NCBI RefSeq assembly: GCF_017348835.2
Contig: NZ_CP071375.1
Length of the DNA stretch: 64,000 nucleotides
Source: Escherichia coli
GTDB taxonomy: Bacteria > Pseudomonadota > Gammaproteobacteria > Enterobacterales > Enterobacteriaceae
Reading direction: 5' to 3' (one strand)
Made by a program: the position numbers. This document shows, piece by piece, positions 18,001-21,000 of the stretch. How positions within the stretch are numbered: position 1 is the first letter of the stretch; the number at the start of each line of letters is the position of its first letter.

Positions 18001-21000
18001 TAAATGATTTCAGCCAACGCATATACCACTGTTGGCTTATTGAGGTGTAAACGGCAAACACTGGACGCACAGGTAAAAACAGTCCAAGCAAAATGCCATC
18101 AATAAAAGAGACGTGATTAGGCGTGATTAGAACGCGCTCGCCCTTCAGTGCCTGGGTGTCACCCGTAACGCGAACGCGATACAAAACACGGCACAAATTT
18201 CGAAAAAAGCTAAAAAGCATTCCAACTCCCTTTGCTCTGATTCAGTAAAAGCGAATGGAGGGAGATTACACGAGATAAAGAACGCGAGCGACAGTAAATT
18301 AGGTGCGAAAAAAAACCTGCGCATCTGCGCAGGCTGGTGTAATTCATGTGCTCAACCCGAAGTTGACTTCACCTATCAATACCTCTGGGATCACCACTTT
18401 AGCAACCTGAAGCCAAACGCCACCAGCGGTCAATCGCAACAGCGTTTCGCAAAGTGTAACCAAAGGTTTGCAATCTCTTTTTTTGTCTTACTTATTTGCG
18501 TTTGGCTCACATTCCCACTGATGAAAACACACCGCCCCTTGAACCAACGGGCGTTTTCCGTAACACTGAAAGAATGTAAGCGTTTACCCACTAAGGTATT
18601 TTCATGGCGACCATAAAGGATGTAGCCCGACTGGCAGGCGTTTCAGTCGCCACCGTTTCCCGCGTCATTAATAATTCACCCAAAGCCAGCGAAGCTTCCC
18701 GGCTGGCTGTGCATAGTGCAATGGAGTCTCTTAGCTATCACCCGAACGCCAACGCCCGTGCGCTGGCACAGCAGACCACTGAAACGGTCGGTCTGGTCGT
18801 TGGTGATGTTTCCGATCCGTTTTTCGGTGCAATGGTGAAAGCGGTCGAACAGGTGGCTTATCACACCGGTAATTTTTTATTGATTGGCAACGGTTACCAC
18901 AACGAACAAAAAGAGCGTCAGGCTATTGAGCAACTGATCCGCCATCGCTGTGCTGCGTTGGTCGTCCATGCAAAAATGATACCGGATGCCGATTTAGCCT
19001 CATTAATGAAACAAATGCCCGGTATGGTGCTGATCAACCGTATCCTGCCTGGCTTTGAAAACCGTTGTATTGCTCTGGACGATCGTTACGGTGCCTGGCT
19101 GGCTACGCGTCATTTAATTCAGCAAGGTCATACCCGCATTGGTTATCTGTGCTCTAACCACTCTATTTCTGACGCCGAAGATCGTCTGCAAGGGTATTAC
19201 GATGCCCTTGCTGAAAGTGGTATTGCGGCCAATGACCGGCTGGTGACATTTGGCGAACCAGACGAAAGCGGCGGCGAACAGGCAATGACCGAGCTTTTGG
19301 GACGAGGAAGAAATTTCACTGCGGTAGCCTGTTATAACGATTCAATGGCGGCGGGTGCGATGGGCGTTCTCAATGATAATGGTATTGATGTACCGGGCGA
19401 AATTTCGTTAATTGGCTTTGATGATGTGCTGGTGTCACGCTATGTGCGCCCGCGCCTGACCACCGTGCGTTATCCAATCGTGACGATGGCGACCCAGGCT
19501 GCCGAACTGGCTTTGGCGCTGGCGGATAATCGCCCTCTCCCGGAAATCACTAATGTCTTTAGTCCGACGCTGGTACGTCGCCATTCAGTGTCAACTCCGT
19601 CGCTGGAGGCAAGTCATCATGCAACCAGCGACTAACCGCAGTTAAAGCAATTCCAGCGCCAGTAATTCTTCGATGGTCTGGCGACGGCGAATCAACCGCG
19701 CCTGACCATTATCAAACAGAACTTCTGGTAACAGCGGACGGCTGTTGTAGTTGGATGACATTGATGCGCCATATGCCCCTGTATCATGCAGTACCAGATA
19801 ATCACCCGCCTTCACTTCCGGCAAGGCGCGGGTTTCGACATTTCCCCCTTCCTGCTGGGTAAAGACATCGCCCGATTCACATAACGGCCCGGCGACGACG
19901 GTTTCCACCGTTGGCGCGTGTTCCAGAGAACGACCATCAGCGGCCAGGGCACTGATATGGTGGTAACTACCGTACATTGCCGGGCGCATCAGATCGTTGA
20001 ACCCGGCATCAACCAGCACAAAGTGGCGGCTACCCATTTGTTTGACGCTCCGCACCTGAGTAATTAATACGCCAGACTGCGCTACCAGGAAGCGACCCGG
20101 TTCAATTTCCAGTTTCACAGGGTGGCCCAAATGGCGAGCGATTTGCTCACGCGCGGCATTCCACAGACCATAATAATGTTCGGTATCAACCGCCTCTTCA
20201 CCCTGTTGATAAGGAACAGAAAGCCCACCGCCCGCAGAAATAGCCTGTAAATCCTGACCGAATTCGAGGACCTGACGCACCATCGCACCACACACCTGCT
20301 CCAGATGGGCATAATCAACGCCAGAACCAATGTGCATGTGAATGCCGACCAGCTGCAGATGATGACGTTGTATCACGTCCAGTGCGGCGGGCAGATCGGT
20401 GTACCAGATACCGTGCTTGCTATTTTCGCCACCGGTATTGGTTTTTTGGCTATGTCCGTGACCAAACCCCGGGTTAACGCGCAGCCATACCCGATGCCCT
20501 GGCGAAACCTGGCCCAGTTGGTCGAGCATATCAACAGAACCCGCATTCACCGGAATTTGCAATTCACTGACGCGTTCAAGCGTCGCCTGATCGATAACAT
20601 CTGCCGTAAAAACAATATCATCGGGGTGTGTTTGCGGATTGTAACCCGCCGCCAACGCACGCTCTATTTCGCCTAACGAGACGGAATCCACTTTCACGCC
20701 CTGCTCACGCATTAAGCGCAAAATATGAATATTGGAACAGGCTTTCTGAGCAAAGCGCACCACATCAAACTGTTTCAGCGCTGCAATCTGCCGACGAATA
20801 ATTTGCGCATCGTAGACCCACACCGGGCAGCCAAATTCAGCGGGCAAACGCAGCAGATTTTCGGCGGTGAGAGCGGTATCGGTGCTGAACAGTGAATGTG
20901 GCATAGCAAACTCCAGATAAGTGCTTTTTTATGATTACGCCACATCATAAAAAGAATAAAAAATATCGATTTATGTCGAGTCTATGCAAAAATGATATGG

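Follow-up and report, generated by a model that had tools for sequence, protein, structure and literature searches.

A single, unaltered OmrB gene in an Escherichia coli aas-galR spacer, very probably the product of an omrA deletion at a terminator repeat

OmrA and OmrB are the textbook pair of "redundant" sibling sRNAs. In the stretch of Escherichia coli DNA analysed here (64 kb, hereafter the window), the spacer between aas and galR contains only one Omr gene. Which sibling remains, how was the other lost, and what does its loss imply for a pair described as redundant?

The spacer (18221-18603, 383 bp) is bounded by two coding sequences, both placed from the ORF list and the RefSeq annotation of PE164 (a near-identical strain isolated from a pig, NZ_CP114128.1), from which the window differs by 2 mismatches in 38,355 aligned bp. 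The downstream neighbour, on the Omr strand, is aas (16061-18220, minus strand), whose product is the acyl-ACP-phospholipid O-acyltransferase/acyl-ACP synthetase; the divergent upstream neighbour is galR (18604-19635, plus strand). A search with Rfam family RF00079 (OmrA-B), which has a gathering score of 40 bits, returned one match in the spacer at 86.1 bits (E = 1.8e-16). This match spans the full model (positions 1-87), and no second RF00079 match was found in the whole 64-kb window. The preliminary description of this DNA, which reported one Omr gene of 82 nt in a 383-bp spacer, was thus correct on this point. The distances that it gave, 88 and 215 bp, were each off by one: the gene (18308-18389, minus strand) is separated from aas by 87 nt and from galR by 214 nt. 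Its conserved 5' seed, CCCAGAGGUAUUGAU, the end that pairs with targets, is present exactly at 18375-18389 (minus strand), as located by the Rfam alignment. A terminator scan and the MFE structure place a Rho-independent terminator hairpin, followed by a U-tract, at 18314-18335 (minus strand), with a 9-bp stem containing 6 G-C pairs and a U8 tail; the predicted fold of the whole RNA has an energy of -26.6 kcal/mol (z = -2.9).

Two other Rfam families also gave matches over the terminator, Leu_leader (27.8 bits against a threshold of 50) and SgrS (15.2 bits against 37); both fell below threshold and were discarded as terminator-driven noise. Mechanically called ORFs of 59, 45 and 53 amino acids in the spacer were likewise set aside, as the sRNA gene and its promoter explain the region fully. 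The RefSeq tables for the spacer, in the window and in K-12 NCM3722 (601-1184 of the extracted locus) alike, list only CDSs and no sRNA feature. Those tables therefore do not reveal whether omrA or omrB has been gained or lost.

The surviving gene is OmrB, unaltered, and its transcript is not chimeric. It is identical to K-12 OmrB at 82 of 82 nucleotides, whereas an alignment with OmrA has 66 identities in 92 columns, and it possesses both the OmrB-type central region (26 nt) and the 82-nt length. The earlier suggestion that the survivor might be a chimera, to be recognized by comparing its body with both paralogues for a junction, therefore does not hold in the window: the body is OmrB throughout. 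The only omrA-side DNA here is the stretch past the U-tract, i.e. the 87 bp up to aas. On the opposite side, the promoter and upstream region of omrB (18390-18518, minus strand) consist of 129 bp identical to K-12, and the first difference is an inserted T at 18519. This insertion and two substitutions (18531 and 18534), all relative to K-12 and proximal to galR, also occur in F2_81, a pig isolate with two Omr genes, and are thus unrelated to the deletion described below. The promoter function of the region is taken from the literature. No consensus promoter emerged there from a simple sigma-70 scan, a result that is expected for an activator-dependent promoter but that lends no independent support to promoter function. 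In gene (82/82), seed, terminator, the 129 upstream bp and the galR side, the locus matches that of K-12 OmrB (RygB; RF00079). Activation by OmpR, binding of Hfq and repression of ompT, cirA, ompR and other targets are predicted for the survivor from the identity of its gene and 129-bp upstream region to those of K-12. It differs from the K-12 gene in its surroundings: K-12 OmrB has omrA as a partner, whereas here omrB stands alone and its U-tract is followed by the downstream flank of omrA.

How omrA came to be missing is apparent from comparison with two-copy loci. In K-12 NCM3722, the spacer measures 584 bp and has two RF00079 matches. The gene closer to aas is omrA (88 nt), the one closer to galR is omrB (82 nt), and their period is 202 bp from start to start. 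The K-12 arrangement that the preliminary description had given, two tandem genes about 200 bp apart in a longer spacer, is accordingly accurate. The alignment that it had proposed gave no second Omr copy in the window and a longer, two-gene reference spacer (584 versus 383 bp). Against K-12, the window shows one gap of 202 bp and is otherwise almost identical; against F2_81, the gap is 203 bp. The omrB U-tract varies in length among strains, with 9 A (plus strand) in F2_81 and 23S01245-7 compared to 8 in K-12 and the window (18308-18315).

The ends of the gap are informative. The gap abuts an 18-bp sequence, AAAAAAAACCTGCGCATC, of which K-12 has one copy in each of its two Omr terminators; no longer exact run exists at offset 202 in the K-12 spacer. 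This sequence comprises the U-tract and the 3' half of the terminator stem. In the window, a sole copy of this direct repeat remains, at 18308-18325, and it marks the deletion junction. Position 18326 is a T, as in omrB; the crossover thus lay at or before 18325, within 18308-18325. Exactly one repeat period (202 bp) has been removed, and with it both the body and the promoter of omrA, as well as the spacer that separates this promoter from the omrB terminator. The proposal that the paralogues collapsed through common sequence is therefore upheld, in that the 202-bp gap starts and ends in the 18-bp terminator identity and one copy is left. A second exact 18-bp repeat between the paralogues, ATCAATACCTCTGGGATC, is located at their seed ends, at offset 196 in K-12; the window copy lies at 18375-18392.

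These observations bear on whether anything was lost at all. Some Enterobacteriaceae have one Omr gene in the aas-galR spacer, according to PMC13425233, and the lineage of the window might on that account never have undergone the duplication. We consider this ancestral single-copy state refuted. The 87 bp on the 3' side of the survivor (18221-18307) are identical to the sequence between aas and the omrA terminator in K-12 and F2_81; that is, the survivor is followed by the omrA flank and not by the omrB flank. Further, F2_81 is a sister with two copies and identical flanking sequence, and the omrA-specific segment that the window has lost is present in 5,417 of 5,426 complete E. coli genomes (99.8%). 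It is also very improbable that an assembler merged two similar genes. The genes are indeed tandem paralogues, and what we inspected were assemblies. However, each 202-bp unit offers just two exact 18-bp stretches, far too little for collapse in a complete-genome assembly; both copies were resolved in the same 5,417 assemblies; and the junction seen in the window recurs in six unrelated complete genomes. The evidence as a whole is best explained by a naturally arisen deletion of omrA from the tandem omrA-omrB pair of E. coli, a reading that we hold to be very probable.

We propose the following sequence of events. Read along the minus strand, the one transcribed, the ancestral locus would have run galR side, omrB promoter, omrB, omrA promoter, omrA and aas. 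The 18-bp stretch in the omrB terminator would have misaligned with its copy in the omrA terminator, 202 bp downstream, and the body of omrA would have dropped out together with its promoter and the omrB-distal spacer. Such an event would leave the omrB promoter and the whole of omrB, joined at the U-tract to DNA that normally lies 3' of omrA. The features expected of a direct-repeat deletion are present, with one repeat copy left and 18-bp repeats 202 bp apart, close enough to lie within one replication fork.

Rearrangement between short, close direct repeats is RecA-independent, depends on proximity and is favoured by short homology, as summarized in PMC7063769 (citing Bi and Liu 1994, and Bzymek and Lovett 2001); the same paper states that RecA-dependent events require much longer homology. 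An 18-bp identity at a spacing of 202 bp makes slippage likelier than classical RecA exchange. The mechanism was therefore probably misalignment between short, close direct repeats, independent of RecA, which could have taken the form of replication slippage or of sister-strand misalignment. It is speculation on our part that the repeat, being half of a G+C-rich palindrome in the terminator, may favour polymerase pausing. The tandem paired-gRNA cassettes described in PMC7063769 offer a close parallel. Like omrA-omrB, they consist of two promoter-RNA-terminator units with short repeats at both ends, and they yield two deletion classes that are set by which repeat pair misaligns. They differ in residing on a plasmid, in having repeats of 35 and 82 bp and in that their RecA independence was measured; the omrA-omrB repeats are chromosomal and 18 bp long, and the mechanism proposed for them is the probable one.

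Classical RecA-dependent unequal crossing-over between sister chromosomes, with omrA paired with omrB, would give the same end product by a different enzymology. We regard this route as unlikely, while granting it some weight. The 18-bp core sits within 32 bp that contain just 2 mismatches, and one genome in our survey has a product of the reciprocal type. That genome is the human isolate H52_982342 (NZ_AP026085.1), in which three RF00079 matches lie in the order omrA, omrA, omrB (729-1216 of the extracted locus), a reciprocal expansion at the 18-bp terminator repeat. Slippage produces expansions too, and so this triplication fits both mechanisms. Against RecA exchange, the longest uninterrupted identity is 18 bp, well short of the much longer homology required according to PMC7063769.

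Is the deletion old or recent, and did it happen once? For PE164, the closest two-copy genome is F2_81, which shows 0 SNPs relative to PE164 in the 6.8-kb flanks and encodes the same Aas, LplT, GalR, LysA and LysR proteins. Given these identical flanks, the deletion is recent in the PE164 lineage. Recurrence was addressed by a survey of 5,426 E. coli genomes, all of them complete. Probes of 78 nt across each junction were used with an E-value cut-off of 1e-24, at which the 48-nt half-matches of two-copy genomes drop out; a 36-nt junction probe was abandoned, since the BLAST low-complexity filter would mask its A8 run and leave no 28-mer seed. The terminator-repeat deletion, leaving OmrB only as in the window, was found in 6 of the 5,426 genomes: A29 (capybara), PE164 (pig), FDAARGOS_1287 and MS20677 (human), OkiPb01717 (cattle) and isolate 30345_1#186. 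The nine genomes that lack the omrA-specific segment equal in number these six carriers plus three that lack the whole locus, an agreement of counts only.

The six carriers differ from one another by 47-141 SNPs in the 6.8-kb flanks and have six different Aas proteins. These six flanking haplotypes point to six separate omrA-deletion events. The junctions themselves are identical over 78 nt in all six carriers, and no variable sites occur among them between -86 and +169 of the junction. Both observations would be compatible with a deletion allele of single origin, disseminated by horizontal transfer and short-tract homologous recombination. We judge such a history to be very improbable. The repeat fixes the sequence of the junction, and independent events would likewise be expected to give identical junctions. 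On either side of the junction, the closest flanking SNPs are not the same from carrier to carrier, in addition to the 47-141 SNPs across the flanks as a whole; the imported tract would have needed to be shorter than about 255 bp every time; and PE164 shares identical flanks with a two-copy strain.

If the terminator repeats can misalign, the seed repeats offer a second site, and a mirror-image class is indeed present. Ten of the 5,426 genomes have a 196-bp deletion at the ATCAATACCTCTGGGATC repeat, which leaves a 388-bp spacer with one Omr seed and the omrA body behind the omrB promoter. The exact K-12 OmrA sequence is found in 7 of these 10 genomes and the K-12 OmrB sequence in none. This class, from which PE164 is absent, is a true chimera of omrB promoter and omrA body. 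The ten genomes fall into approximately six haplotype groups. The terminator-repeat expansion (omrA-omrA-omrB) was found in H52_982342 alone (1 of 5,426), and the junction of a seed-repeat expansion (omrB body, seed and omrA promoter) had no match among the 5,426 genomes. Across the 5,426 genomes, the locus has thus collapsed independently about 12 times and expanded once, and each such allele is limited to one genome or to a tight cluster of at most three. Isolate 30345_1#186, a terminator-type deletion, lies 11-12 SNPs in 6.8 kb from the group of Rb-23, TUM14697 and 1002W03, which has the seed-type deletion. Thus, both deletion classes arose in closely related backgrounds.

The two deletion classes have counterparts between species. 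Species with one Omr gene have either OmrB or a chimera in which the omrB promoter drives omrA (Mathis de Fromont et al., NAR 2026, PMC13425233). The "OmrB only" class of that report has the omrB promoter and the omrB transcript and lacks omrA, as in the window, and its chimera class corresponds to our ten seed-junction genomes. The distinction is one of scale: PMC13425233 concerns differences between species, whereas the E. coli alleles are rare polymorphisms at strain level, with mapped break points and a two-copy sister.

The geometry of deletion accounts for what is common to both classes. A deletion between homologous points keeps the DNA upstream of the crossover in omrB and the DNA downstream of it in omrA, and the omrA promoter is therefore always lost. 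A crossover at the terminator would yield omrB under its own promoter, and a crossover at the seed would yield omrA under the omrB promoter. In our reading, this geometry accounts by itself for the published rule that the omrB promoter is retained in every single-gene species; an explanation from repeat geometry was not found in the accessible text of PMC13425233. A broader reading is that the tandem acts as a hotspot for copy-number change and promoter swapping, in which the two 18-bp repeats keep yielding four states (the wild-type pair, OmrB only, omrA-omrA-omrB, and the omrA body behind the promoter of omrB), with selection usually purging this variation and favouring particular states in some niches. 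We hold this to be a doubtful generalization. If it is true, retention of the omrB promoter across species would follow from the geometry of deletion, not from selection on that promoter.

Within E. coli and Shigella, loss of the other sibling has been described. Skippington and Ragan (2012, PMC3318445) reported that Shigella boydii lost omrB and counted OmrA as a core gene in each of the 27 genomes examined. The S. boydii case is the converse of ours: there the omrB transcript is lost, whereas in the window omrA is lost and omrB is kept. The window is thus a counter-example to OmrA as a core gene, at a frequency of about 0.1%. The OmrB RNA itself, the loss of omrB in S. boydii and both single-gene classes between species were already known; for the strain-level alleles, their break points and the triplication, we found no description in the accessible parts of the Omr literature.

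What would a cell with OmrB only be missing? Both RNAs are activated by OmpR and regulate common, seed-dependent targets through their 5' ends (PMC2588501, PMC13425233). OmrA is almost wholly dependent on sigma-S, its central region pairs with btuB, and it also acts at a second dgcM site (PMC12692685, PMC13425233). A strain of this kind is expected to continue to make OmpR-dependent OmrB and to regulate the common seed-dependent targets. It would be expected to lose the sigma-S-dependent Omr input in stationary phase, together with the regulation specific to OmrA, i.e. that of btuB and of the second dgcM site. The question of why both Omr genes are kept has been approached through the regulators (sigma-S for omrA, RstA for omrB) and targets particular to each paralogue. 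The natural alleles provide a further approach: PE164 and the otherwise identical two-copy strain F2_81 are ready material for assessing OmrA's own contribution.

The population data speak to the same question. The deletion recurs and is irreversible without import of DNA, yet approximately 99.7% of complete genomes keep both genes, a pattern that fits purifying selection. The occurrence of recurrent deletion alleles at branch tips thus suggests that selection keeps both paralogues. The opposite view, that loss of omrA is adaptive and reflects convergent selection against the sigma-S-driven paralogue, could draw on the six independent losses and on the finding that high levels of OmrA, and not of OmrB, inhibit growth on glucose minimal medium (2026 preprint, 10.64898/2026.06.26.734723). 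We find adaptive loss very improbable. Each carrier of an omrA loss is a singleton, with no clonal expansion; the hosts (pig, capybara, cattle and human) are unrelated; and the opposite class, in which the omrA body survives, is no rarer. Moreover, the repeat structure alone predicts recurrence.

The deletion may also touch the neighbouring gene. Transcription of aas runs in the Omr direction and starts 87 bp past the terminator. The loss of omrA together with its promoter may alter the activity of the aas promoter or the amount of read-through that enters aas.

Other features of the window lie apart from the Omr locus. The gene ppdA (prepilin peptidase-dependent protein A; 5912-6382, minus strand) has an in-frame stop at codon 45 and is a pseudogene in the PE164 annotation. 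From about 32800 to 38355 and beyond, the PE164 annotation lists ygeG, ygeH (HilA family) and an OrgA/MxiK-like type III secretion gene, as well as one frameshifted hypothetical gene. We take this segment to resemble the ETT2 type III secretion island, which adjoins a glycine tRNA gene. A tRNA-Gly(CCC) gene is located at 57695-57768 (minus strand) in the window.
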